Virus record (IMG/VR): IMGVR_UViG_2563366991_000003
Source of the DNA: a virus
Lineage: Duplodnaviria > Heunggongvirae > Uroviricota > Caudoviricetes
DNA: 45,681 bases
Direction: 5' to 3' (one strand)
This document shows, in pieces, positions 2,795 through 45,681 of this stretch (within the stretch, counting starts at the first letter, position 1; each line of letters starts with the position of its first letter). The notes under the pieces were generated by a model, which had not been told where the DNA came from, searched no databases, and was given only the letters and a program-made list of their open reading frames with translations. The translations under genes were made by a program, and so were the position numbers.

Positions 2795-5438
2795 TTGCAT
2801 ATTCCTTAGCCCAGCGGGGCAGTGATAACGTCTTAATAGCTGGCCATTCATCGGTATTGAGGCAGTCAGCCAGGGTTCGCAGATTGCGGTGATATTCCAG
2901 CTGACCTGCTAGTTTTGCTTCTTCGCCCATCATGAAAATTTCAACCGGATAACGTCCGCATTCAATAGTTGTGCTGGCAACCAGAAAAACGAAAGTTGGC
3001 TGCACTCCAAACTGTGCTTCATAACCGTCACTGTAGAATGCATCCTGAACGTGATAGCGGTAGTCGTAATAAGCGGTTTTGAATCGTTGAATATCCGCCG
3101 TAGTTTTCACGTCCATGATCCAGTGAAATTCAGGGATAATTTTGTCCGGACGGCACCGACACAAAATTCCTGTTTCAGGATCTTCCCAGTAAATTGATGA
3201 TTCAGCGTGTCCGGCGCTTTCAACAAGCCATTGCCCCAGCGGCAAAGCCATAACGCTTTGATACATCAGTTCAATTTTCCGGCCTTCTTCCGCAGTGATA
3301 ACCATTTTTCCTGTGCTTGCGCATTCCATCAGAAACGCTTTCTCTTCTTCTTTTCCGGCGTTTGTACGGCGGTTAAATTCAGGTGCTACGATAAAGCGGT
3401 TACTGAATTCTTCCGGTTCAAGTACCCGGCAGTGGAAAGCGGTTCCTAAATCGAGCGTTTTTGTCTTTGTGGTGTCCACGGGGGCATTTTTACGCCACAA
3501 ATACAGTGCCGGAGTATCAGCAATGTCATCGAGCTGAGACTTACTGACACCGGGACCTGCGTGGTAATTCTCATTCGAAATTCCGTAATAAATACCTGGC
3601 TCTATGTCTTCTACGATTACGGGATCTGCGACTTCGCCAGTTTCATCACTGCAATCGCGATGCGGATCGCTGCCAGCATTCTCATTGTGCGGATGTTCAG
3701 CGCCTTCCATTTCCTCCGGATCATTTTCCTTAGCTTCAACCTGATTCTCTTCATCGAATGTTTCCTGGTTTGTTGCGTCGCCCATCACCGCACCACAGTC
3801 AGGGCAGTTATCCCCGCCAGTCTGGCCGCAGGCATTGAAGGCTATTTCCGGTTCCTGTTGCACTACTGGCTCAGGTTGTTTCATATCCGGGCTGGTTTTT
3901 TCCGTTTCTGGCTGGTTCTGGTACACAGAATCGCGAGTCTGGATCCCCTTAACCCATTTCGGATCGTTCGGGTCGCTAATTCCGTCAACAAATTCACCAC
4001 GTGATGCAGCAAGCAATTTATCGGCATCGACAGGATTTTTTGATGGAATGTTTTTCCGAGCTTCATGGAGTTCTGCCCGCAGTTCCTGATATTTCGCATC
4101 AACAGAATTTACCTGTGACTGAGCATCCAGCGGCTGCGTGTCCTGATGATGTTTAGTTGCGTCCGGTTCCATTGTTTCAGCCTCTCCCTGTTCATCTGCC
4201 GTTGTTCCAGATGGTTGCAGTTTTTCTTCATCATCCTGTTTTCCTTCTTCTGTTACTCGCTGCGGCATCGGGGCAGAGGAGCGACCGCAGGCAATATCCA
4301 CGATTTCCGGATCAGGGTTGGCATGATCGGTTTCAGTCAGTACTTTGTTCAGATATGCAGTGACGTGAGCGGGGATGACCTCGATCCCAATTGGTGCTTC
4401 TTTCACGGACGCAACCACGATGGCGCGGGAATAATCCAGCCCGCCAGGCATGGTGATGAATTTGTCGCGGAAAACAGAAAAGGGCGGTTTATTTTCAGCG
4501 ATAATTTCCTCAATGCGTTTAGCGTGTGCCGGATGAAGGTTATAGATGTCCACGTCCATTGAACGGGCCAGTACGCCAGTGGCTATATCGCGCGCCAGTG
4601 ACGTCAGATCGTGGACGAAACCTTCGCCGCGATCTGTGAGGTTCCCGCCGCCAGCATTAGCACCGGAAGCCGTGCGAGTGATGCGTGAAACACGATTCCC
4701 TTTTCGCCATTCTTTTGTCAGAAGACCGCGATCAATGTGTTCGGTATCCAGCCAGGCTGAAATGAAATTCTTAAATTCATAGGGCTGATGTTTTTTAGTG
4801 ATAGAGAAAACTGCCTTAATTGCATCAGTCAGGCGGAGCAGGGCGGCATTATCCAGAGTTGTCGGTTCTGCCATGCCGCGTATGGCCAACAGCAGATTCT
4901 GGACATAGCTGTTTTCCTGATCCATCTCAAGAGCAGTAATGTGTTCGCGTTGTTCTCGGGTGGCATGATGCAGGTATTTCCGATCCCCGGCCGCATACGT
5001 AAAAATGTGCAGAAGACGCTGTGTGAACCGCAAAGTGGCTACAGAGACTTCGCAATCCTGGCAATCCTCGTGGGCGTCTGCCTGCGCGTTTTCTTCCTGG
5101 CCTCCCGCCAGTTCGTTGGTTTCTTGAGCATTATCCTGGTGGTGAACGTCGTCTGGCGCTGCTCCCGGTTTTAGTTCCCATGTCATGGAGTCTTTGCTGA
5201 GTTGATAGCGTTCACTCCAGGTAAAATCGATCTCACCTTCAGGGGGAAGGTCATTAACGACAGGAAAATTTGTGGCAACAGCTTTAAAATAGTTGCTCAG
5301 TTTTTTACCTGACTTAACGATCAGGTAGTCCAGAGTGGCACAGGTCGATTCAAAATCGTCGCTTGCCCACAGGACGACGTCAGGTTCACCGGATGATTTT
5401 TTCGCTTTCCGTAACAGGAAGAGTGGTTTTGTGCTCAT
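2787..5438 (-). CDS. recE: RecE exonuclease VIII
   Basis: 883-aa ORF whose 3' end overlaps the recT start (classic recE-recT coupling); acidic central region and C-terminal nuclease domain as in Rac RecE. Confidence 0.88.
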
Positions 5439-11696: not shown

Positions 11697-12851
11697 ATGG
11701 ATTATTTATCAGAAGTGTTAAAAATCATTGAAGGTGCAACAAAGGCAAATGCTTCGATGGCTAGTAATTATGCTGGGTTGCTGGCAGATAAGCTCGAACA
11801 AAAAGGGGAGGTCAAGCAAGCCAGAATGATAAGAGAAAGGTTGCTTAGAGCTCCCCAGGCGTTGGCAGGAGCTCAAAGGGCTGGAGGTGGGATATCTCTG
11901 GGCTCATTACCGGTAGATATTGATAGTCGACTCAACACTGTTGATGTCAGTTATCCTAAATTAGACAGTTCAGAGATTTTTCTGCCTGCAGCAATCAGTA
12001 CCCGTGTTGAAGAGTTTATCACTAATGTTCAACGTTATGATGAGTTTGTTAAAGCTGATGCAGCATTGCCGAGTCGTATGCTCGTGTATGGAAAGCCAGG
12101 AACAGGTAAGACTATGTTATCTAAGTACATCGCTACCCGCTTAGATTTTCCACTTCTTACAGTGCGTTGCGATACTTTGATTAGTAGTTTATTGGGACAA
12201 ACCAGCAAAAATCTTAGACAGGTTTTCGATTATGTAATGCAGAGGCCATCAGTGCTTTTTTTAGACGAATTTGATGCTTTAGCTGGAGCAAGAGGTAATG
12301 AGAGAGATATAGGTGAGCTTCAGCGAGTTGTCATTTCACTATTGCAGAATATGGATGCGGCATCAGAGGATACGGTAATTATTGCCTCAACTAACCATGA
12401 GCAACTTCTGGATCCTGCAATCTGGAGGCGATTTAGCTTCAGAATTCCAATGCCTCTGCCTGACATACATCAGAGAGAGTTAATTTGGAAAAATCGTTTA
12501 AAGAATATGATATGTAGCGATCTAGATTTAAGTGATTTATCAAGAAAATCGGAAGGATTATCCGGAGCAATAATTGAACAGGTGAGCTTGGATGCACGTA
12601 GGGATGCAGTTATTGAAGGTGCAAGTGTGATAAATCACCATAAATTGTATAGGCGTTTGTATCTTGCTCAATCGCTTATGGAAGGTGTAAATTTAAGCAC
12701 TTACGAAGATGAAATTCGTTGGTTACGTTCTAAAGATAAAAAATTATTTTCTATCAGAGTTCTTGCTAATTTGTACAAACTTACATCAAGAGTAATTTCA
12801 AACATTCTGAAGGAGTCAGGAGCATATGAGCAGAAGGGGTACACAGTTTAG
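11697..12851 (+). CDS. AAA+ ATPase (IetA-like candidate)
   Basis: Walker A VYGKPGTGKT, Walker B VLFLDEFD, sensor-1 ASTNH, Arg-finger-like RRF; AT-rich codon usage distinct from flanking genes; GGGAG RBS. Confidence 0.85.
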   Translation: MDYLSEVLKIIEGATKANASMASNYAGLLADKLEQKGEVKQARMIRERLLRAPQALAGAQRAGGGISLGSLPVDIDSRLNTVDVSYPKLDSSEIFLPAAISTRVEEFITNVQRYDEFVKADAALPSRMLVYGKPGTGKTMLSKYIATRLDFPLLTVRCDTLISSLLGQTSKNLRQVFDYVMQRPSVLFLDEFDALAGARGNERDIGELQRVVISLLQNMDAASEDTVIIASTNHEQLLDPAIWRRFSFRIPMPLPDIHQRELIWKNRLKNMICSDLDLSDLSRKSEGLSGAIIEQVSLDARRDAVIEGASVINHHKLYRRLYLAQSLMEGVNLSTYEDEIRWLRSKDKKLFSIRVLANLYKLTSRVISNILKESGAYEQKGYTV

Positions 12852-13713
12852 TAACGCAAAAGTTACAAACCCAATGTTAAGAATCCCTTTTTCCAGTAGT
12901 GACTTGGGTGCAATAGTAAACGCTGGCGGTGGGGCAAAGGTATTGGTTGATGTAACAGCCGAATATAGACAAGGGCTAGTAAGAAATTTAACAACCAGTA
13001 AACATTATTTAGAATCCAAACTTTCAGAGTACCCTGGAAGCTTGGGTACTTTGGTTTTCAAATTAAGAGACCAGGGAATAGCCAAAACGCATAGGCCGAA
13101 CAAAATTGCTCAAGAGGCTGGATTGCAAAATGCCGGTCATGCCAAAATAGATGAAATGTTGGTTGCTGCTCATGCCGGCTGTTTTGACGTATTAGAGTCA
13201 GTCATTTTACATCGGAATATTAAAGCGATTTTGGCTAATCTAAGCGCGATTGAGCGCATTGAACCTTGGGATGAGAATAGGAAGGTTCCAGGAGGCACTG
13301 ATGGTTTGTTTGAATCATCAAACATCCTTGTACGACTATTTGAGTACACAGGTGAAGATGCAACTTACAACAACTATGAAAACGTTATTTCTATATTAGA
13401 ACAACACGGAGTTAAATATGATGAGATTAGACAAAAATGTGGTCTTCCCTTATTAAGGATAATGGATTTATCCCCAAATGATAGATATATATTAGACATT
13501 CTCATTGATTACCCGGGTATAAGAACGTTAATTCCTGAACCAAAATATTCAGCATTCCCGGTTAGTGTAAGTGATTCTGTTGGCATTGAAACAAATAGCT
13601 TTCCCGTACCATCAGAAGAATTACCCATTGTTGCTGTATTTGACACTGGGGTAAGCCCCATCGCGGCAACAATTACTCCTTGGGTAGTGAGGGTAATGAC
13701 TCCAACTTATTGA
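12826..13713 (+). pseudogene. S8 subtilisin-like serine protease, N-terminal fragment (IetS-like candidate) ending in IS1
   Basis: Start overlaps the ATPase stop by 26 nt with an AGGAG RBS; contains the catalytic Asp motif AVFDTGV just before the IS1 junction; the last 7 codons read into IS1. Confidence 0.8.
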
Positions 13714-14210
13714 TAGTGTTTTATGTTCAGATAATGCCCGATGACTTTGTCATGCAGCTCCACCGATTTTGAGAACGACAGCGACTTCCGTCCCAGCCGT
13801 GCCAGGTGCTGCCTCAGATTCAGGTTATGCCGCTCAATTCGCTGCGTATATCGCTTGCTGATTACGTGCAGCTTTCCCTTCAGGCGGGATTCATACAGCG
13901 GCCAGCCATCCGTCATCCATATCACCACGTCAAAGGGTGACAGCAGGCTCATAAGACGCCCCAGCGTCGCCATAGTGCGTTCACCGAATACGTGCGCAAC
14001 AACCGTCTTCCGGAGCCTGTCATACGCGTAAAACAGCCAGCGCTGGCGCGATTTAGCCCCGACATAGCCCCACTGTTCGTCCATTTCAGCGCAGACAATC
14101 ACATCACTGCCCGGCTGTATGCGCGAGGTTACCGACTGCGGCCTGAGTTTTTTAAGTGACGTAAAATCGTGTTGAGGCCAACGCCCATAATGCGGGCTGT
14201 TGCCCGGCAT
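13707..14210 (-). CDS. insB: IS1 InsB (made as InsAB' by frameshift)
   Basis: 167-aa ORF overlapping the insA 3' end in another frame, inside IS1. Confidence 0.9.
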
Positions 14211-14404
14211 CCAACGCCATTCATGGCCATATCAATGATTTTCTGGTGCGTACCGGGTTGAGAAGCGGTGTAAGTGAACTGCAGTTGCCATGTTTTACGG
14301 CAGTGAGAGCAGAGATAGCGCTGATGTCCGGCGGTGCTTTTGCCGTTACGCACCACCCCGTCAGTAGCTGAACAGGAGGGACAGCTGATAGAAACAGAAG
14401 CCAC
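14129..14404 (-). CDS. insA: IS1 InsA
   Basis: 91-aa ORF with Cys-rich zinc finger and HTH, inside IS1. Confidence 0.9.
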
Positions 14405-14459
14405 TGGAGCACCTCAAAAACACCATCATACACTAAATCAGTAAGTTGGCAGCATCACC

Positions 14460-15867
14460 GGTAGTGAGTAGGGAAACATACGTAATTCCTCCTGATACGA
14501 GTTATGAACATGGGACTATGGTGTCTTCATTGATATCAGGCGCTCATTTTTTAAATGACAATCATCCATGGATTCCTGATACAAAATCTAAAATCCATGA
14601 TGTTTGTGCCTTAGATGAAAATGGATCTTATATATCAGATTTAATTCTGAGGCTAGCAGATGCTGTAAATAAAAGACCAGATATAAAAGTCTGGAATTTG
14701 TCTTTGGGAGGCGGACCATGTAATGAGCAGACGTTTAGTGATTTTGCGATGGAGTTAGATCGGCTCAGCGATAAATTTGGTATTTTGTTTGTAGTTGCTG
14801 CAGGTAATTATGTAGATGAACCTATACGTACATGGCCAAATCCTGATCCGCTTGGAGGTGCTGATTTAATTTCCTCTCCTGGAGAGTCAGTCCGAGCACT
14901 AACAGTTGGTTCAGTTTCTCATATGGAAGCTAATGATGCTTTAAGTGAAATTGGAACACCGACACCATATACTCGTCGTGGCCCTGGGCCTGTATTTACT
15001 CCAAAGCCAGATATAATCCATGCTGGCGGTGGGGTTCATAGACCTTGGAATGTAGGAGCAAGCAGTTTAAAGGTCGTAGGGCCAGATAATAGGCTTTGCT
15101 CTAATTTTGGTACTAGTTTTGCTGCTCCAATTGTGGCAAGTTTAGCTGCGCATACATGGCAGAGAATAGCCACTAATACAGACTTTAATGTTTCACCATC
15201 ATTGATTAAAGCATTATTAATTCATTCCGCTCAATTATCTTCTCCTGATTACTCGCCAAGTGAAAGACGCTATTTGGGAGCGGGAATTCCTAATGAAGTT
15301 ATTGAGACCTTATATGATAGTGATGATAGGTTTACTCTGATTTTCCAAACATTCTTGGTTCCTGGGGTGAGGTGGAGAAAGGATAACTATCCCATACCAT
15401 CGGCACTTATTCAAAATGGAAAATTTAAAGGTGAGATTGTAATTACTGCTGCATATGCACCACCACTGAACCCTAATGCCGGCAGTGAATATGTTCGCGC
15501 GAACGTAGAGCTAAGTTTTGGCTTAATTGAGAATAATACTATAAAAGGAAAAGTGCCTATGGAAGGAGAAAACGGTCAATCTGGATATGAGAGAGCTCAA
15601 ATTGAGCATGGTGGAAAGTGGTCACCAGTAAAAATTCATCGCAAGGCATTTAATAAAGGAATTACTTCGGGTAACTGGGCTCTTCAGGCTAAAACAACGT
15701 TGAGAGCGAATGAACCGGCCTTAATGGAGCCTTTACCTGTAACTATTGTAGTAACTTTAAAATCATTAGATGGAAACACACAAGTTTATGCTGATGGCGT
15801 AAGAGCTTTAAATGCTAATAACTGGGCTCACTATCCATTGCCTGCTCGTGTGCCAGTTTCCGTATAA
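14460..15867 (+). pseudogene. S8 subtilisin-like serine protease, C-terminal fragment
   Basis: Same frame as the N-terminal fragment once IS1 and one repeat copy are removed (..TPWVV|SRETYVIPP..); His motif HGTMVSS, Ser motif GTSFAAP, and VAAGNY oxyanion region. Confidence 0.8.
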
Positions 15868-18062: not shown

Positions 18063-18138
<76 letters not shown>

Positions 18139-18141
18139 TAT

Positions 18142-18216
<75 letters not shown>

Positions 18217-37767: not shown

Positions 37768-38098
37768 TACGGAAGAATTTCACTGGTTACCAGAGGATGG
37801 AATGAAAACAGAAAATAAACCATCGATAAAAACTGTAAGATTTGGCGATGGTTATGAGCAACGAAGTCCAAATGGACTTAATCATTCTCTGCGCGTTTTC
37901 ACCTGTGATTTCAAAGTTGAGGCGAATGAACGTGATTCATTTGAAAAATTTTTAGCCCGGCATGAAGGCTATAAATCTTTTTTTTGGCGCCCGCCTGGTA
38001 TTAACAGAAAAATCAGAGTGGTGTGTCGAACGTGGTCAGCGACAGAACATATCACCTATACCGATTTTTCGTGTCAGTTTGACGAAGTGGTGATCTGA
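37760..38098 (+). CDS. Minor tail protein M (lambda gpM-like); likely ATG start at 37802
   Basis: VRFGDGYEQRSPNGLN and C-terminal FDEVV match the recalled lambda M pattern. Confidence 0.75.
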   Translation: MANTEEFHWLPEDGMKTENKPSIKTVRFGDGYEQRSPNGLNHSLRVFTCDFKVEANERDSFEKFLARHEGYKSFFWRPPGINRKIRVVCRTWSATEHITYTDFSCQFDEVVI

Positions 38099-38796
38099 TG
38101 CAGGACATACAACAGGAAACGCTGAATGAATGCATTCGTGCGGAGCAGTCGGCCAGCGTGGTGCTCTGGGAAATCGACCTGACCGAGGTAGGCGGGGATC
38201 GCTACTTTTTCTGCAATGAGCAGAACGAGAAAGGAGAGTCTGTCACCTGGCAGAGTCGGCAGTATCAGGCCTATCCCATTCAGGGGAGTGGATTTGAGAT
38301 GAACGGCAAAGGTGCCAGTGCAAGGCCAACGCTGAAAGTCTCTAATCTGCACGGCATGGTCACCGGGATGGCGGAAGACCTGCAGAGTCTGGTCGGCGGA
38401 ACGGTGGTCAGGCGTAAGGTTTACGCCCGTTTTCTGGATGCGGTGAACTTCGTCAACGGAAACAGTGACGCCGATCCGGAGCAGGAGGTGATCAGCCGCT
38501 GGCGTATTGAGCAGTGCAGCGAACTGAGCGCGGTCAGTGCCTCCTTTGTACTGTCCACGCCGACGGAAACGGACGGCGCTGTTTTTCCGGGGCGCATCAT
38601 GCTTGCTAATACCTGCACCTGGACCTATCGCGGTGATGAGTGCGGTTATCACGGTCCGGCGGTCGCGGATGAATATGACCAGCCGACATCCGAAATCACG
38701 AAGGATAAATGCAGCAAATGCCTGAGTGGCTGTAAGTTCCGCAATAATGTCGGCAACTTTGGCGGCTTCCTTTCCATTAACAAACTTTCGCAGTAA
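38098..38796 (+). CDS. Minor tail protein L (lambda gpL-like)
   Basis: 232-aa ORF with C-terminal Cys cluster (CSKCLSGCKF); start overlaps the M stop. Confidence 0.85.
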   Translation: MQDIQQETLNECIRAEQSASVVLWEIDLTEVGGDRYFFCNEQNEKGESVTWQSRQYQAYPIQGSGFEMNGKGASARPTLKVSNLHGMVTGMAEDLQSLVGGTVVRRKVYARFLDAVNFVNGNSDADPEQEVISRWRIEQCSELSAVSASFVLSTPTETDGAVFPGRIMLANTCTWTYRGDECGYHGPAVADEYDQPTSEITKDKCSKCLSGCKFRNNVGNFGGFLSINKLSQ

Positions 38797-38801
38797 ATCC
38801 C

Positions 38802-39545
38802 ATGACAGAGACAGAATCAGCGATTCTGGCGCACGCCCGGCGATGTGCGCCAGCGGAGTCGTGCGGCTTCGTGGTGAGAACGTCGGAAGGGGAAAGATAT
38901 TTTCCCTGCGTGAATATCTCCGGTGAGCCGGAGGAGTATTTCCGGATGTCGCCGGAGGACTGGCTGCGGGCAGAGATGCAGGGTGAGATTGTGGCGCTGG
39001 TCCACAGCCACCCCGGTGGTATGCCCTGGCTGAGTGAGACCGACCGGCGGCTGCAGGTGCAGAGTGATTTGCCGTGGTGGCTGGTTTGCCGGGGAGCGAT
39101 TCACAAGTTCCGCTGTGTGCCACATCTTTCCGGGCGGCGCTTTGAGCACGGGGTGACGGACTGTTACACGCTGTTCCGGGATGCTTACCATCTGGCGGGG
39201 ATTGAGATGCCGGATTTTCATCGCGAGGATGACTGGTGGCGTAACGGTCAGAATCTCTATCTGGATAATCTGGAGGCCACAGGGCTGTATCAGGTGCCGT
39301 TGTCAGCGGCGCAGCCGGGCGATGTGCTGCTGTGCTGTTTTGGTTCATCGGTGCCGAATCATGCCGCCATTTACTGTGGTGACAGCGAGCTGCTGCACCA
39401 TATTCCTGAACAACTGAGTAAACGAGAGAGGTACACCGACAAATGGCAGCGACGCACACACTCCCTCTGGCGTCACCGGGCATGGCACGCATCTGCCTTT
39501 ACGGGGATTTACAACGATTTGGCCGCCGCATCGACCTTCGAGTGA
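38802..39545 (+). CDS. Tail assembly protein K (lambda gpK-like; MPN/JAB plus NlpC/P60 domains)
   Basis: HSHPGG..SETD JAB-type motif and Cys/His peptidase region. Confidence 0.85.
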   Translation: MTETESAILAHARRCAPAESCGFVVRTSEGERYFPCVNISGEPEEYFRMSPEDWLRAEMQGEIVALVHSHPGGMPWLSETDRRLQVQSDLPWWLVCRGAIHKFRCVPHLSGRRFEHGVTDCYTLFRDAYHLAGIEMPDFHREDDWWRNGQNLYLDNLEATGLYQVPLSAAQPGDVLLCCFGSSVPNHAAIYCGDSELLHHIPEQLSKRERYTDKWQRRTHSLWRHRAWHASAFTGIYNDLAAASTFE

Positions 39546-40090
39546 AAACGGGGTCCGAAGCCATCCGGGCGCTGGCCATGCAGATCCCGGCGTTTCGTCA
39601 GAAACTGAGCGACGGCTGGTATCAGGTACGCATTGCCGGGCGTGATGCAGGTGAAACTGAATTATCAGCCCGTCTTAATGAACCGCTGGCAAATGGTGCC
39701 GTGATCCACATTGTGCCGCGTCTGGCGGGAGCCAAAAGTGGCGGTCTTTTTCAGGCTGTGCTGGGGGCGGCGCTGATTGCGGTGGCATGGTGGAACCCTG
39801 CAGGTTGGTTGGGGGCTGCCGCAATTACAGGAATGTATGGTGCGGGGGCCAGTATGGTGCTCGGTGGTGTGGCGCAGATGCTGGCACCGAAAGCCAGAAC
39901 TCCCCGTACACAGACAACGGATAACGGCAAACAGAACACCTATTTCTCCTCACTGGATAACATGGTTGCCCAGGGCAATGTTCTGCCGGTTCTGTACGGT
40001 GAAATGCGCGTGGGGTCACGGGTGATTTCGCAGGAGATCAGCACGGCAGATGAAGGAGATGGTGGTCAGGTTGTGGTGATTGGTCGTTGA
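39443..40090 (+). CDS. Tail assembly protein I (lambda gpI-like)
   Basis: Near-match to recalled lambda I (MAATHTLPLASPGMARICLYGDLQRFGRRIDLRVKTG...); overlaps the K 3' end. Confidence 0.8.
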   Translation: MAATHTLPLASPGMARICLYGDLQRFGRRIDLRVKTGSEAIRALAMQIPAFRQKLSDGWYQVRIAGRDAGETELSARLNEPLANGAVIHIVPRLAGAKSGGLFQAVLGAALIAVAWWNPAGWLGAAAITGMYGAGASMVLGGVAQMLAPKARTPRTQTTDNGKQNTYFSSLDNMVAQGNVLPVLYGEMRVGSRVISQEISTADEGDGGQVVVIGR

Positions 40091-40150
40091 TGCAGAATGT
40101 TTTGTGTGAAACCGCCTCAGGGCGGTTTTGTCGTTTCTGGAGCGTGAGGA

Positions 40151-43100
40151 ATGGGTAAAGGCAGCAGTAAGGGGCATATCCCGCGCGAAGCGAAGGACAA
40201 CCTGAAATCATCCCAGATGCTGAGCGTGATAGACGCCATCAGTGAAGGGCCGATTGAAGGTCCGGTGGATGGATTAAAAAGCGTGCTGCTGAACAGTACG
40301 CCGGTGCTGGACAGTGAGGGGAATACCAATATCTCCGGCGTCACGGTGGTGTTCCGGGCAGGTGAGCAGGAGCAGTCACCGCCGGAGGGATTTGAATCCT
40401 CCGGTTCCGAGACGGTGCTGGGTACGGAAGTGAAATATGAAACGCCGATCACCCGGACCATCACGTCGGCAAACATCGACCGTCTGCGCTTTACCTTCGG
40501 TGTACAGGCACTGGTGGAAACCACCTCAAAGGGAGACAGGAATCCGTCGGAAGTCCGCCTGCTGGTTCAGATACAGCGTAACGGTGGCTGGGTGACGGAA
40601 AAAGACATCACCATTAAGGGCAAAACCACCTCGCAGTATCTGGCCTCGGTGGTGGTGGATAACCTGCCGCCGCGCCCGTTCAATATCCGGATGCGCAGGA
40701 TGACGCCGGACAGCACCACAGACCAGCTGCAGAACAAAACGCTCTGGTCGTCATACACCGAGATCATCGATGTGAAACAGTGCTACCCGAACACGGCACT
40801 GGTCGGCGTACAGGTGGACTCGGAGCAGTTCGGCAGCCAGCAGGTGAGCCGTAATTATCATCTTCGCGGGCGCATTCTGCAGGTGCCGTCGAACTATAAC
40901 CCGCAGACGCGACAATACAGCGGTATCTGGGACGGAACGTTAAAACCAGCATACAGCAACAACATGGCCTGGTGTCTGTGGGATATGCTGACCCACCCGC
41001 GCTACGGCATGGGGAAACGTCTTGGTGCGGCGGATGTGGACAAATGGGCGCTGTATGTCATCGGCCAGTACTGCGACCAGTCAGTGCCGGACGGCTTTGG
41101 CGGCACGGAGCCGCGCATCACCTGTAATGCGTACCTGACCACACAGCGCAAGGCGTGGGATGTGCTCAGTGATTTCTGCTCGGCGATGCGCTGTATGCCG
41201 GTATGGAACGGGCAGACGCTGACGTTCGTGCAGGACCGACAGTCGGATAAGGTGTGGACCTATAACCGCAGTAATGTGGTGATGCCGGATGATGGCGCGC
41301 CGTTCCGCTACAGCTTCAGCGCCCTGAAGGACCGCCATAATGCCGTTGAGGTGAACTGGATTGACCCGAACAACGGCTGGGAGACGGCGACAGAGCTTGT
41401 TGAAGATACGCAGGCCATTGCCCGTTACGGTCGTAATGTCACGAAGATGGATGCCTTTGGCTGTACCAGCCGGGGGCAGGCACACCGCGCCGGGCTGTGG
41501 CTGATTAAAACGGAACTGCTGGAAACGCAGACCGTGGATTTCAGCGTGGGCGCAGAAGGGCTTCGCCATGTGCCGGGCGATGTTATTGAAATCTGCGATG
41601 ATGACTATGCCGGTATCAGCACCGGTGGTCGCGTGTTGGCGGTGAACAGCCAGACCCGGACGCTGACGCTCGACCGTGAAATCACGCTGCCATCCTCCGG
41701 TACCACGCTGATAAGCCTGGTTGACGGAAGTGGCAATCCGGTCAGCGTGGAGGTTCAGTCCGTCACCGACGGACTTAAGGTGAAAGTGAATCGGGTTCCT
41801 GACGGCGTTGCAGAATACAGTGTGTGGGGGCTGAAGTTGCCGACGTTGCGTCAGCGCCTGTTCCGCTGTGTGAGTATCCGTGAGAACGATGACGGCACGT
41901 ATGCCATCACTGCCGTGCAGCATGTACCGGAAAAAGAAGCCATCGTGGATAACGGGGCGCACTTTGACGGCGACCAGAGCGGCACGGTGAATGGTGTCAC
42001 GCCGCCAGCGGTGCAGCACCTGACCGCCGAAGTCACCGCAGACAGCGGGGAATACCAGGTGCTGGCGCGCTGGGATACGCCGAAGGTGGTGAAGGGCGTG
42101 AGCTTTATGCTTCGCCTGACCGTGGCAGCGGATGACGGCAGTGAGCGGCTGGTCAGCACGGCCCGGACGACGGAAACCACATACCGCTTCACGCAACTGG
42201 CGCCAGGGAACTACAGGCTGACAGTCCGGGCGGCAAATGCCTGGGGGCAGCAGGGCGATCCGGCATCGGTATCGTTCCGTATTGCCGCACCGGCAGCGCC
42301 GTCGCGGATTGAGCTGACGCCGGGCTATTTTCAGATAACCGCCACGCCCCATCTTGCCGTTTATGATCCGACGGTACAGTTTGAGTTCTGGTTCTCGGAA
42401 AAGCGGATTGCGGATATCAGGCAGGTTGAAACCACAGCCCGCTATCTTGGCACGGCGCTGTACTGGATAGCTGCCAGTATCAATATCAAACCGGGCCATG
42501 ATTATTATTTTTACATCCGCAGTGTGAACACCGTTGGCAAATCGGCATTTGTGGAGGCTGTTGGCCAGCCGAGTGATGATGCATCCGGCTATCTGGATTT
42601 TTTCAAAGGCGAGATAGGGAAAAGCCATCTGGCTCAGGAGCTGTGGACGCAGATTGATAACGGTCAGCTTGCGCCTGACCTGGCTGAAATCAGGACGTCC
42701 ATTACGGATGTCAGCAATGAAATCACGCAGACCGTCAATAAGAAACTGGAAGACCAGAGTGCGGCGATCCAGCAGATACAGAAGGTTCAGGTTGATACAA
42801 ATAATAACCTGAACAGCATGTGGGCTGTGAAGCTGCAGCAGATGCAGGACGGACGCCTTTATATCGCGGGTATTGGTGCCGGTATTGAGAACACCCCTGA
42901 CGGCATGCAGAGTCAGGTGCTGCTGGCGGCGGACAGGATTGCGATGGTTAATCCTGCGAATGGCAACACAAAGCCGATGTTTGTTGGTCAGGGCGATCAG
43001 ATATTCATGAACGAAGTGTTCCTGAAACGCCTGACGGCTCCCACCATTACCAGCGGCGGTAATCCTCCGGCATTTTCCCTGACACCGGACGGGCGGCTGA

Positions 43101-43630
43101 CGGCGAAAAATGCCGATATCAGCGGTAGCGTGAATGCGAACTCCGGGACGCTCAACAACGTCACGATTAACGAGAACTGTCGGGTTCTGGGAAAATTGTC
43201 CGCGAACCAGATTGAAGGCGATCTCGTTAAAACAGTGGGCAAAGCTTTCCCCCGGGACTCCCGTGCACCGGAGCGGTGGCCATCAGGGACCATTACCGTC
43301 AGGGTTTATGACGATCAGCCGTTTGACCGGCAAATTGTTATTCCAGCGGTGGCTTTCAGCGGTGCCAGACATGAACGGGAGAATAGCGATACTTATTCGT
43401 CATGCCGCCTGATAGTGAAGAAAAACGGGGCTGAAATTTATAACCGAACGGCTCTGGATAATACTCTGATTTACACGGGTGTTATTGATATGCCTGCAGG
43501 CAGTGGCGTAATGACACTGGAGTTTTCTGTATCAGCATGGTGGGTAAATGGCTGGTATCCCACAGCAAGTATCAGCGATTTGCTGGTTGTTGTGATGAAG
43601 AAAGCCACTGCAGGCATCACGATTAGCTGA
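40151..43630 (+). CDS. Host-specificity central tail fibre protein J (lambda gpJ-like)
   Basis: 1159-aa ORF; N-terminus [26 protein letters not shown] as in lambda J. Confidence 0.9.
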
Positions 43631-43648
43631 ATTTTATAACCCAGATAC

Positions 43649-43675
43649 GGGCGCCAGAAATGGCGCCTTTTTTAT
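43649..43675 (+). terminator. Rho-independent terminator after J
   Basis: ggcgcca-gaaa-tggcgcc stem followed by ttttttatt. Confidence 0.5.
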
Positions 43676-43697
43676 TGCAGAAAAGCGAGAGGTAATT

Positions 43698-44297
43698 ATG
43701 CGTAAATTATGTGCTGTTATTCTGTCCACAGTAGTCTGGCTGGTCGCCGCTGGTACGCCAGCGAGCGCAGCAGAGCATCAGTCCACACTAAGCGCCGGGT
43801 ATCTTCAGACCCATACTGATATGCCCGGCAACGATGACCTGAAGGGCATTAACGTGAAATACCGTTATGAATTTACGGACACGCTGGGGCTGGTGACGTC
43901 ATTCAGTTATGCCAAAGACAAAAATCAGCAAAAAACGCATTACAGCGATACCCGCTGGCATGAAGATTCAGTGCGTAACCGCTGGTTCAGCATGATGGCG
44001 GGGCCGTCTGTACGCGTGAATGAATGGTTCAGTGCTTATGCGATGGCAGGTGTGGCTTACAGCCGTGTTTCGACGTTCTCCGGGGATTATCTCCGCGTAA
44101 CTGACAACAAGGGGAAAACGCACGATGTGCTGACCGGAAGTGATGACGATCGCCACAGCAACACGTCTCTGGCGTGGGGAGCTGGCGTGCAGTTTAACCC
44201 GACCGAATCCGTGGCCATTGATATTGCTTATGAAGGCTCCGGCAGTGGCGACTGGCGCACTGACGGTTTCATCGTGGGTGTCGGTTATAAATTCTGA
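43698..44297 (+). CDS. lom: Lom outer-membrane protein (Ail/Lom family)
   Basis: Signal peptide MRKLCAVILSTVVWLVAAGTPASA; beta-barrel with C-terminal ...GYKF. Confidence 0.85.
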   Translation: MRKLCAVILSTVVWLVAAGTPASAAEHQSTLSAGYLQTHTDMPGNDDLKGINVKYRYEFTDTLGLVTSFSYAKDKNQQKTHYSDTRWHEDSVRNRWFSMMAGPSVRVNEWFSAYAMAGVAYSRVSTFSGDYLRVTDNKGKTHDVLTGSDDDRHSNTSLAWGAGVQFNPTESVAIDIAYEGSGSGDWRTDGFIVGVGYKF

Positions 44298-44322
44298 TTA
44301 GCCAGGTAACACAGTGTTATGA

Positions 44323-44351
44323 CAGCCCGCCGGTTCAGGCGGGCTTTTTTG
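44323..44351 (+). terminator. Rho-independent terminator after lom
   Basis: agcccgcc-ggttca-ggcgggct stem followed by tttttt. Confidence 0.55.
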
Positions 44352-44361
44352 TGGAGTGGAT

Positions 44362-45681
44362 ATGGCAGCAGTAAAAATCTCAGGTGTGCTGAAAGATGGT
44401 GCGGGAAAACCAATACAGAACTGCACTATTCAACTGAAGGCAAAGCGTAACAGCACCACTGTACTGGTGAACACGGTGGCCTCTGAAAATCCGGATGAAG
44501 CCGGGCGTTACAGCATGGACGTTGAGTATGGCCAGTATAGCGTTATCCTGCTGGTTGAAGGTTTTCCGCCTTCACATGCCGGGATCATTACCGTCTATGA
44601 AGGTTCCAGACCAGGTACGCTGAATGATTTTCTCGGTGCCATGACGGAAGATGATGTCATGCCGGAGGCATTGCGTCGTTTTGAGGCAATGGTGGAAGAA
44701 GCGGCACGCAACGCCGAAGCCGCCTCTCAGAGCGCAGCGGTGGCAAAGAAATCCGAAACTGCAGCGGCATCATCGAAGAACGCGGCGAAAACCTCAGAAA
44801 CGAATGCAGCTAACAGCGCACAGGCGGCAGCGTCCTCGCAGACTGCATCGGCAAACTCCGCGACAGCAGCCAAAAAATCAGAAACCAACGCGAAAAACAG
44901 CGAGACAGCCGCAAAGACGAGCGAAACCAACGCAAAGTCCAGCCAGACGGCAGCGAAAACCAGCGAAACGAATGCCAAAGCCAGTGAAACTGCGGCGAAA
45001 AATAGCCAGGCTGCAGCAGCTGAAAGCGAGAGCGCAGCAGCCGGTTCTGCGACTTCAGCAGCTGGATCAGCAACTGCTGCGGCTAACAGCCAGAAAGCTG
45101 CGAAGACGAGTGAAACTAACGCAAAGTCCAGCCAGACGGCAGCGAAGACCAGCGAAACGAATGCCAAAGCCAGTGAAACTGCGGCGAAAAGCAGTCAGGA
45201 TGCAGCGGCCCAAAGCGAGAGTGCCGCAGCCAGTTCTGCAAGCGCGGCGGCTGCTTCTGCCACTGCATCAGCTAACAGTCAAAAAGCAGCAAAAACCAGT
45301 GAAACCAACGCAAAGGTGAGCGAAACAGCGGCTGCGAACTCAGCGAAAGCATCGGCAGCAAGCCAGACGGCAGCTAAAGCAAGCGAAGATGCAGCCAGAG
45401 AGTACGCAAGCCAGGCTGCGGAGCCGTATAAATATGTCTTACAGCCGCTGCCTGATGTGTGGATACCATTTAACGATTCGCTGGATATGATTACGGGCTT
45501 TTCGCCATCATATAAAAAAATTGTTATTGGTGACGATGAAATAACGATGCCTGGCGACAAGATTGTTAAGTTTAAACGTGCATCGAAAGCAACCTATATT
45601 AACAAATCTGGTGTGCTGACAGAGGCTGCCATTGACGAGCCACGATTTGAACGTGATGGCCTGCTTATTGAGGGGCAAAGA
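44362..45681 (+). CDS. Side tail fibre protein (lambda Stf-like), 3'-truncated by the window end
   Basis: ATG at 44362 then a 440-codon open frame to the window end; N-terminus MAAVKISGVLKDGAGKPIQNCTIQLKAK and TSETNAK-type Ala/Ser/Thr repeats. Absent from the ORF track because no stop falls inside the window. Confidence 0.8.
   Translation, partial: MAAVKISGVLKDGAGKPIQNCTIQLKAKRNSTTVLVNTVASENPDEAGRYSMDVEYGQYSVILLVEGFPPSHAGIITVYEGSRPGTLNDFLGAMTEDDVMPEALRRFEAMVEEAARNAEAASQSAAVAKKSETAAASSKNAAKTSETNAANSAQAAASSQTASANSATAAKKSETNAKNSETAAKTSETNAKSSQTAAKTSETNAKASETAAKNSQAAAAESESAAAGSATSAAGSATAAANSQKAAKTSETNAKSSQTAAKTSETNAKASETAAKSSQDAAAQSESAAASSASAAAASATASANSQKAAKTSETNAKVSETAAANSAKASAASQTAAKASEDAAREYASQAAEPYKYVLQPLPDVWIPFNDSLDMITGFSPSYKKIVIGDDEITMPGDKIVKFKRASKATYINKSGVLTEAAIDEPRFERDGLLIEGQR

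Follow-up and report, generated by a model that had tools for sequence, protein, structure and literature searches.

The gene that begins at nt 12,826 on the plus strand of the window analysed here, a stretch of 45,681 nt, lies in a Rac-like E. coli prophage and is ietS (named iteS by NCBI), with an N-terminus typical of its family. Directly upstream on the same strand is ietA (iteA, nt 11,697–12,851), which specifies a 384 aa AAA+ ATPase of the classical clade, the antitoxin/regulator partner of IetS (PADLOC IetA model PDLC02196, E = 8.9e-143; NCBIfam NF042959, 526.6 bits, cutoff 510; Pfam AAA domain at aa 128–253). The start of ietS overlaps the stop of ietA by 26 nt, and a Shine-Dalgarno sequence (AAGGAG) lies 9 nt upstream of its ATG. 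The 5' part of ietS (codons 1–288 plus 2 nt, nt 12,826–13,691, plus strand) is 100% identical to the intact iteS of NZ_CP026723.1, and its reading frame (nt 12,826–13,713) runs on into an insertion element, where a stop at nt 13,713 gives a truncated product of 295 aa.

The inserted element is a 768 bp IS1 (nt 13,692–14,459) with 23 nt inverted repeats and with insA and insB on the minus strand. It is flanked by a 9 bp target-site duplication, GGTAGTGAG, with copies at nt 13,683–13,691 and 14,460–14,468, and it entered ietS at codon 289, separating Asp273 from His303. The 3' part of the gene (nt 14,469–15,867, plus strand) carries the remainder of the S8 catalytic domain, including the codons for H303 (nt 14,509–14,511), N402 (nt 14,806–14,808) and S505 (nt 15,115–15,117), and a conserved, beta-rich C-terminal domain (aa 561–754, from nt 15,283). 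Removal in silico of IS1 and one copy of the duplication restored an ORF of 754 aa with D273, H303, N402 and S505, identical at 2265/2265 nt to the intact iteS annotated by NCBI's PGAP, so the preliminary description was justified in referring to a repaired full-length protein. An intact allele of the pair is represented, for example, by WP_001551050.1 with WP_000385105.1. The S8 catalytic set (Asp, His, Ser and the oxyanion Asn) is complete in the repaired gene and invariant across the family. The IS1/ietS junction seen here is absent from all 5,426 complete E. coli genomes, and this copy was inactivated by IS1 recently. The window carries an ietS pseudogene split by IS1 rather than an intact, expressible gene and, because the gene is broken, IetS as described below is nonfunctional in this genome.

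The two-gene IetA–IetS system, in which IetS is the subtilase that acts as toxin/effector, is an already known toxin‒antitoxin and anti-phage system. Yamamoto et al. reportedly gave the first description of it, on pTiC58, in 2009, and Gao et al. are said to have shown in 2020 that it defends against phage. Assignment to this family is secure: the repaired protein matched PADLOC IetS model PDLC02197 with 997.7 bits (E = 8.3e-301, aa 12–753), and a 99% identical protein (P0004) matched the NCBIfam equivalog NF042956 with 1043.8 bits (cutoff 900) over aa 15–752, so that the curated models span the N-terminal region from end to end. The ietA gene is found directly upstream of ietS in 44/44 related loci with upstream DNA, the same order as in the window, and the pair occurs in 78 of the 5,426 complete E. 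coli genomes. The copy in the prophage thus agrees with the known system in its gene pair and order, in passing the curated models and, once IS1 is removed, in its identity to iteS; it differs in being an interrupted pseudogene. As a locus it is ordinary, a catalogued defence/toxin‒antitoxin pair that has been broken by IS1, and in itself adds nothing new. In studies of homologues, IetS-type proteases proved toxic by themselves, and the ATPase neutralises them (PMC8562856). Attempts to clone ietA mutants failed, defence requires protease activity, and the mechanism of IetAS was called unknown in the same 2026 paper (PMC13069673). Defence works through abortive infection, with a phage protein as the trigger (bioRxiv 10.1101/2022.08.27.505566). 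A literature search returned no paper on an IetAS structure.

The feature of interest is the long stretch that precedes the protease, to which the preliminary description had drawn attention, naming a pro-domain, a sensor and a domain that interacts with the ATPase as options. Its existence was borne out, as 267 residues precede the S8 core, which is recognised by Pfam from residue 268, and so was its lack of a recognisable catalytic motif, no Pfam family being found on residues 1–267. The catalytic Asp had been placed about ten residues too far along, near 283; it is residue 273, in the motif FDTGV (codon at nt 13,642–13,644, plus strand), and is invariant both in alignment A1 and in 43 diverse homologues. 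The region is unusually long when compared with classical subtilases, the pro-peptides of which are about 77 aa, but not within the IetS family, where it measures 248–283 aa in 43 diverse members.

Sequence comparison confirmed that the N-terminal region is conserved far beyond chance, in homologues down to approximately 20% identity (phmmer E-values from 1e-54 to 1e-4). An exhaustive phmmer search of 1.84 billion representative sequences gave 78 matches, all of them IetS-like proteins of 722–779 aa or shorter products; among ten of the shorter matches that were scanned, an S8 domain was present in seven and no Pfam match in three. The N-terminal halves match only IetS models in PADLOC. A profile of residues 12–160, used to search for other architectures, returned only short proteins, and of the four examined, two were IetS remnants (cut by, or adjacent to, an IS element), one lay near a contig end and one, P0252, was a standalone ORF of 140 aa with no AAA+ or S8 gene nearby. 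Judged by these searches, the region has been found only in IetS-type subtilases or their remnants. Neither the whole protein nor a 34-sequence profile of the N-terminus gave a match to the N-terminal region among PDB sequences (best E = 0.18).

AlphaFold2 (AF2) models were obtained for the full-length protein (pLDDT 86.7, pTM 0.90) and for the N-terminus only (pLDDT 88.6), and they agree in showing the same two modules of beta-alpha-beta-beta-alpha-beta topology. The N-terminal region is predicted to consist of four parts, not one domain, all of them encoded on the plus strand. The first comprises an N-terminal extension (aa 1–44, nt 12,826–12,957), with conserved N15-P16, D26 and a G34–G36 loop (alignments A1 and A2), and a long helix (aa 45–70, nt 12,958–13,035; AF2 helix 45–68, pLDDT 92–98) in which R48 is near-invariant. 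The second, module 1 (aa 71–150, nt 13,036–13,275), is a predicted ferredoxin-like fold specific to IetS, matched in PADLOC by IetS models only, with strands at 74–80, 101–105, 110–115 and 142–147 and helices at 82–97 and 119–141. It contains a signature motif (aa 86–91, nt 13,081–13,098) between strand 1 and the following helices, A-K-T-H-R-P in this protein and AKSHRP in the family consensus. Across 43 diverse homologues, A86, K87 and P91 are each conserved at 100%, R90 at 97% and H89 at 93%. A motif of this type is kept in homologues from Turicibacter, Chryseobacterium, a Thermoplasmatales archaeon and an A. vitis plasmid, whereas in the homologue of the Agrobacterium Ri-plasmid type the N-terminus is divergent and the motif has degenerated to APTHTP.

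The third part, module 2 (aa 166–242, nt 13,321–13,551), lies directly upstream of the catalytic core and resembles an Inhibitor_I9 pro-peptide in its predicted fold. Its AF2 elements are strands at 167–171, 198–201, 209–212 and 232–237 and helices at 177–193 and 217–228, and its conserved residues are F172, P230-G231-x-R233 and E238-P239-x-Y241. The fourth part is a poorly conserved tail of low confidence that connects module 2 to the core (aa 243–267, nt 13,552–13,626); for residues 241–250 and 251–260, respectively, the full-length model has a mean pLDDT of 64 and 71, compared with 64 and 56 when the N-terminus was modelled alone, and the tail is predicted to be flexible. The mean pairwise identity is 0.35 for module 1, 0.20 for module 2, 0.19 for the tail and 0.40 for the catalytic domain. 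Modules 1 and 2 showed no similarity to each other by hhalign, and an internal duplication therefore cannot be shown.

The structure prediction and similarity search that had been proposed at the outset placed the full IetS model closest to the pro-forms of subtilases. The best PDB matches were ProN-Tk-SP (E = 3.5e-23), PCSK9 with its prodomain, and unautoprocessed pro-subtilisin E, and the model aligned over 448 columns with the last of these but over only about 315 with mature subtilisins. The isolated N-terminal model matched the PCSK9 prodomain (2p4e_P) in Foldseek with a probability of 0.99 and a target-normalised TM-score of 0.53 (E = 1.3e-2), in a search in which all E-values were above 1e-3 and generic tandem ferredoxin/ACT folds scored as well as this prodomain; among viral structures (BFVD), Foldseek found nothing at E ≤ 1e-3. 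The topology and position of module 2 in the predicted models fit I9, and the conserved aromatic residue Y241 sits 32 residues before Asp273, which is the spacing of the P1 Tyr and Asp32 in pro-subtilisin. Searches with Pfam Inhibitor_I9 (PF05922) gave no match to the full protein at E ≤ 1, or to 34 diverse N-termini at E ≤ 10. In a comparison with an I9 mini-alignment, the sequences of which were checked against the PDB, hhalign returned a probability of 5% for module 2, in an alignment confined to helix 2 and strand 4, and no similarity for module 1. Module 2 is thus similar to an I9 pro-peptide in its modelled fold but not detectably in sequence.

The classical pro-subtilisins (subtilisin BPN'/E, proteinase K and Tk-subtilisin) share with the IetS models a beta-alpha-beta-beta-alpha-beta module before the core, and with the IetS sequence the aromatic-to-Asp spacing of 32, but they are secreted, whereas IetS, as read from its sequence, has no signal peptide and is cytoplasmic; it also carries approximately 165 additional N-terminal residues, and there is no detectable sequence homology between the two. 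PCSK9, which among single domains gave module 2 its best match in structure (13–17% sequence identity), comes from eukaryotes, is secreted and lacks an ATPase partner, and in these respects is unlike IetS. Its prodomain stays bound after cleavage and inhibits the enzyme, and so provides a precedent for a pro-domain that persists as a regulator instead of being a chaperone discarded after use. Short strands at 18–20 and 27–30 (pLDDT about 85) and at 240–242 are present in the full-length model and absent from the isolated N-terminal model. Solely from the way in which the two models differ in secondary structure and pLDDT, we infer that the extension may dock on the protease and that residues 240–242 may lie in the substrate cleft. 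A likeness to the intracellular subtilisin (ISP) of Bacillus, which has a short N-terminal blocking extension of LIPY/F type, was also considered. Proteobacterial IetS proteins have I/V-P-F/Y at aa 20–22 (IPF in this protein), but the more distant members lack it, and the likeness was dropped because the motif is not conserved across the family; the extensions also differ in length, about 18 aa in ISP and about 267 aa in IetS.

Taken together, this is an IetS-type N-terminus, and the best explanation of it, one we regard as probable, is that it has the four-part architecture described above and serves as a pro/regulatory region and as a handle for IetA. We infer that it remains covalently attached and that IetA restrains the protease through it. 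Module 2 and the tail would act as an attached pro-peptide, assisting folding and occluding the active site, while the extension and module 1 would dock on the body of the protease and offer a contact, or handle, to hexameric IetA. ATP-driven remodelling by IetA would then hold or reset the zymogen state, and once IetA was diverted or blocked by a phage trigger, IetS would be free to mature, leading to abortive infection. The pro-region is insufficient to silence IetS, as the protease is toxic alone and IetA is needed for neutralisation. IetA itself looks like an active translocase, judging by the near-invariance of its Walker A and B motifs, RR motif and pore-loop-1 region (SSLLG) among 45 homologues. 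Its secondary matches are to the PADLOC TRIP13 models (E = 2.4e-16). In CBASS, TRIP13/Pch2 is an AAA+ negative regulator that remodels its HORMA partner through the N-terminus of that partner. IetA is likewise a genetic negative regulator, the loss of which is toxic (PMC13069673), but its partner is a protease, and the likeness is one of analogy only. When regions of IetA were compared with the domains of IetS by mirror-tree and partial correlation, shared ancestry dominated the result; module 1 did not stand out, and the only segments to correlate with each other were fast-evolving ones.

The main alternative is that the N-terminal region, chiefly module 1 with its AKSHRP motif, is a sensor, and that the protease is freed once this sensor binds a phage protein, nucleic acid or a small ligand that carries phosphate, in the manner of ferredoxin-like domains of the ACT or RRM type. 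In ferredoxin-like folds the loop after strand 1 is often a ligand site, and the invariant K, S, H and R of the motif are located between strand 1 and the following helices. The tandem ACT domains of proteins such as aspartate kinase, which like the IetS models have two consecutive ferredoxin-like modules, are among the best Foldseek matches of the isolated N-terminus (E = 3.5e-3, probability 0.87–0.92), with KH/RRM pairs far weaker, and IetAS responds to the expression of a phage protein (bioRxiv 10.1101/2022.08.27.505566). The ACT superpositions are poor, however (TM-score 0.14–0.26, RMSD about 10 Å, E > 1e-3), and no ACT, RRM or KH family was recognised by Pfam in 34 diverse members. Surfaces that sense phage typically diversify, whereas module 1 is among the best conserved parts of the protein, with the same motif from E. 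coli to an archaeon. Its high conservation (35% identity, compared with 20% in module 2) weighs against a sensor of the fast-evolving kind and favours a mechanistic contact that has been conserved, either internal or with IetA, and a sensor role is considered unlikely.

Far less probable is that the region is a plain S8 pro-peptide (Inhibitor_I9), cleaved and degraded as in secreted subtilisins. The predicted module stands where a pro-peptide canonically does and the full model is similar to pro-subtilases, and the pro-domain raised as an option in the preliminary description is supported for only about 80 of the 267 residues, those of the 166–242 module with its pro-form matches. It is not supported for the other 165 or so, the IetS-specific extension and the AKSHRP module, which are confidently folded, better conserved and have an invariant motif of their own, so that the region is not a standard pro-peptide lacking an additional domain; the failure of Pfam and hhalign to match I9 and the cytoplasmic location of IetS also count against this reading. 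That the long N-terminus is an artefact, arising from a wrong start codon or from a separate upstream gene fused in frame, can practically be dismissed: databases do hold short ORFs of the N-terminal part alone, but those examined come from ietS genes that are broken or survive as remnants (frameshifted in L054, internally deleted in L053, cut by an IS in L060 and left as a remnant beside IS110 transposase genes in L061), with the exception of P0252, and the idea is refuted by the 43 diverse full-length homologues in which the region is collinear with the protease in a single ORF, as well as disfavoured by the good Shine-Dalgarno sequence and by the use of the same start in the PGAP annotation.

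The one useful product of the analysis is a working parse of the IetS N-terminus, in which the AKSHRP module, specific to IetS, is followed by a pro-peptide-like module. This directs attention to the AKSHRP motif, Y241, residues 1–165 and the contact between IetA and IetS as points that can be tested. A more far-reaching version, which we put forward only tentatively and think rather unlikely, is that module 1 and the extension, with the AKSHRP motif, make up a regulatory domain not described before, by means of which hexameric IetA holds a cytoplasmic subtilase zymogen in check, and that phage interference with IetA frees processing at the I9-like module to release a lethal protease. If true, it would represent an unfoldase-gated zymogen switch in bacterial immunity.

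A Rac-like lambdoid E. coli prophage makes up the window, which across at least 20 kb is ~99.9–100% identical to the Rac region (recE, racR, ydaS/T/U/V, trkG) of strain 266917_2. Two overlapping genes are encoded on the plus strand, flanked by the replication genes and by the DUF1367/DUF1364 genes: ietA (11697–12851), specifying a 384-aa AAA+ ATPase, and ietS, the ORF of which as it stands covers 12826–13713 and has an AAGGAG Shine-Dalgarno sequence 9 nt before its start. A set of 5,426 complete E. coli genomes includes 78 with the intact pair at ≥99% identity. Genes for tRNA-Thr (tgt) and tRNA-Gly (tcc) are found within the prophage at 18063–18216, as in the Rac-like prophage of 266917_2. The G+C content is 0.51–0.59 at 38000–45000, a region that includes a 1,159-aa ORF (40151–43630), versus 0.39–0.51 elsewhere in the window.

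The ietS ORF ends at 13713 because an IS1 element (768 bp, 23-nt terminal inverted repeats, insA/insB on the minus strand) sits at 13692–14459. A 9-bp direct repeat, GGTAGTGAG, borders it on both sides, repeat and element together occupying 13683–14468. When 12826–13691 is joined to 14469–15867, the reading frame is restored and encodes a protein of 754 aa that has D273 (FDTGV), H303 (HGT), N402 and S505 (GTS); IS1 splits the gene between the catalytic Asp and His. The Asp had been placed at about residue 283 in the preliminary description, and is corrected here to residue 273 (13642–13644). Since the repaired gene and the intact iteS of NZ_CP026723.1 agree at 2265/2265 nt, and its product aligns without gaps to P0004, a 754-aa cluster representative with 99% identity to it, the insertion is recent. 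No genome in the 5,426-member E. coli set has the IS1 junction. The ietS copy in the window is a recent IS1 pseudogene; ietA remains an intact ORF, as does a 295-aa N-terminal part of IetS.

The repaired protein is almost certainly IetS (IteS) and its partner IetA (IteA). It matched the PADLOC IetS model (PDLC02197) over residues 12–753 (E 8.3e-301), and the 99%-identical P0004 matched the NCBIfam equivalog NF042956 (IteS_antiphage) over residues 15–752 (1043.8 bits, cutoff 900); the ATPase matched PADLOC IetA (E 8.9e-143) and NF042959 (IteA; 526.6 bits, cutoff 510). The PHROGs entry for the family, phrog_3964, is labelled function unknown. The ietA/ietS system is already known and annotated. 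Proteases of the IetS type are toxins that the ATPase neutralises (PMC8562856), and IetAS acts by abortive infection, which expression of a phage protein can trigger (bioRxiv 10.1101/2022.08.27.505566). A search of the literature and the PDB found no structure or mechanism paper on IetAS. The preliminary description was right that a long region without a catalytic motif precedes the protease core, as Pfam finds only Peptidase_S8 (residues 268–544) and no domain in residues 1–267. The curated full-length models span this region, which is therefore normal for the IetS family and no oddity of the gene in the window.

An AlphaFold2 model of full-length IetS, built on a 111-sequence alignment, reached pLDDT 86.7 and pTM 0.90, and a model of residues 1–267 alone (34 diverse sequences; pLDDT 88.6) contained the same elements. 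The N-terminal region probably has a four-part architecture that includes two predicted ferredoxin-like modules (β-α-β-β-α-β). Conservation is given below as mean pairwise identity across 43 diverse homologues. An extension (residues 1–44; 0.30), with conserved N15-P16, D26 and G34-G36, leads into a single long helix (45–68; 0.22). Module 1 (71–150; 0.35) is predicted to consist of strand 74–80, helices 82–97, strands 101–105 and 110–115, helices 119–141 and strand 142–147. A variable linker without predicted elements (151–165; 0.11) separates it from module 2 (166–242; 0.20), with strand 167–171, helix 177–193, strands 198–201 and 209–212, helix 217–228 and strand 232–237, and a tail predicted at low confidence follows (243–267; 0.19). 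The corresponding value for the catalytic domain is 0.40. The C-terminal ~190 residues (aa 561–754; 15283–15864) lie outside Pfam S8, are predicted to be beta-rich and are as conserved (0.36) as module 1, with invariant E629, Y630, K672, K677 and R701.

The motif A-x-A-K-(S/T)-H-R-P occupies residues 84–91 of module 1 (AKTHRP in the window, 13081–13098, plus strand). A86, K87 and P91 are invariant among the 43 homologues, and H89 and R90 are 93–97% conserved. Homologues from Turicibacter, Chryseobacterium, an archaeon and an A. vitis plasmid have the motif at the same position while the rest of their N-termini can barely or not be aligned; in the Ri-plasmid homologue it is degenerate (APTHTP). 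The latter is a 736-aa S8 protein of A. cucumeris pRiO132, and the A. vitis protein, which keeps AKSHRP, has 834 aa; the N-termini of these Agrobacterium-type plasmid pairs differ from one another. A Shedu nuclease gene lies one short gene away from the A. vitis pair.

Structural searching of the full-length model, as advised in the preliminary description, returned pro-forms of subtilases as the best PDB matches: ProN-Tk-SP (E 3.5e-23), PCSK9 with its prodomain, fervidolysin and unautoprocessed pro-subtilisin E. The alignment to pro-subtilisin E spans 448 columns, versus ~315 for mature subtilisins. The isolated N-terminus matched the PCSK9 prodomain chain (Foldseek probability 0.99, target-normalised TM 0.53, 90 columns), but all its E-values exceeded 1e-3 and generic tandem ferredoxin/ACT folds ranked equally. 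Strands 18–20, 27–30 and 240–242 appear only in the full-length model and are absent from that of residues 1–267, a difference suggesting that these segments may dock on the protease body. In pro-subtilisin BPN', the P1 residue is Tyr and the catalytic Asp is Asp32. The conserved aromatic Y241 of IetS lies 32 residues ahead of D273, a spacing equal to that from P1 Tyr to Asp32 in BPN', the pro-peptide sequence of which was verified against PDB chains. No Pfam match to Inhibitor_I9 was obtained at E up to 10 in 34 diverse N-termini. With hhalign, the N-terminus gave a probability of 5% against a small I9 alignment, limited to the topologically equivalent helix-2/strand-4 (IetS 217–238 with BPN' pro 50–71), and module 1 resembled neither module 2 nor I9. 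The region thus appears to be partly pro-peptide-like, by predicted fold and position and not by sequence.

An exhaustive phmmer search with residues 1–272, run over 1.84 billion representatives, yielded no more than 78 matches at E ≤ 1e-3, all of them 722–779-aa proteins or shorter products; seven of ten shorter ones scanned with Pfam continue into S8, and three had no Pfam match. The pre-catalytic region is 248–283 aa long in 43 diverse full-length homologues. A scan taking one genome per species detected 51 related loci, from Enterobacteriaceae to Bacteroidota, Firmicutes and one Thermoplasmatales archaeon, and ietA was directly upstream on the same strand in 44/44 loci with upstream sequence. 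Both halves of the region matched only IetS models among 5,027 PADLOC models, and no fusion of the N-terminal module to a different effector was found among the database proteins matched.

Short database proteins made only of the N-terminal region are mostly remnants, those of L053, L054, L060 and L061 among them; one (P0213) is close to a contig end. Among the related loci, IetS carries an internal deletion (L053, aa 315–452) or a frameshift near aa 296 (L054), is truncated by an rve-type IS (L060), is a remnant adjoining IS110 transposase genes (L061), or is reduced to C-terminal remnants (L048, L051), and several broken loci keep the N-terminal part and ietA intact. Repeated breakage fits selection against a toxic protease, and some cases may be assembly errors. 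A 140-aa ORF matching only the IetS N-terminal module (P0252; gene at 5001–5423 in L057–L059) occurs in Rhodospirillales genomes and metagenomes, the assembly collection listing it in 62 blocks. It adjoins an integrase/Prim-Pol island, has neither an AAA+ nor an S8 gene in its vicinity, and may be either a remnant or a domain that stands alone.

Judged from its sequence, IetA shows every hallmark of a working AAA+ machine of the classical clade, its Walker A/B and RR motifs and pore-loop-1 region RCDTLVSSLLGQTSKNLR being near-invariant. The closest NCBIfam relatives are PAN, Cdc48, FtsH and CdvC, and TRIP13 appears among secondary PADLOC matches. The pore-loop-1 equivalent (aa 160–176 region) reads S-S-L-L-G, with Leu instead of the usual aromatic (SSYLG in the archaeal homologue); the 18 residues around it are almost invariant, and the first ~60 residues are also highly conserved. 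IetS alone is toxic, therefore its attached N-terminal region is not sufficient as an inhibitor. The favoured mechanism, itself rather doubtful, is a pro-peptide gated by IetA. Module 2 and the tail would serve as the pro-peptide, aiding folding and occluding the cleft, and the extension and well-conserved module 1 would contact IetA, which would use ATP to keep IetS inactive or return it to that state. Were a phage trigger to block or divert IetA, IetS would then mature and kill the cell. The main alternative, that module 1 acts as a sensor, draws on weak ACT-like fold matches and the placement of AKSHRP just after strand 1, but how strongly the module is conserved speaks against it; a mirror-tree test did not discriminate between IetA contact and sensing. 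A standard S8 pro-peptide without other domains is very unlikely, given the lack of an I9 sequence match and ~165 IetS-specific residues; the pro-domain proposed in the preliminary description is supported for only ~80 residues, pro-peptide-like in predicted fold and position. What the analysis offers for the IetS family, a domain parse and an AKSHRP signature, amounts to testable leads and not to discoveries.
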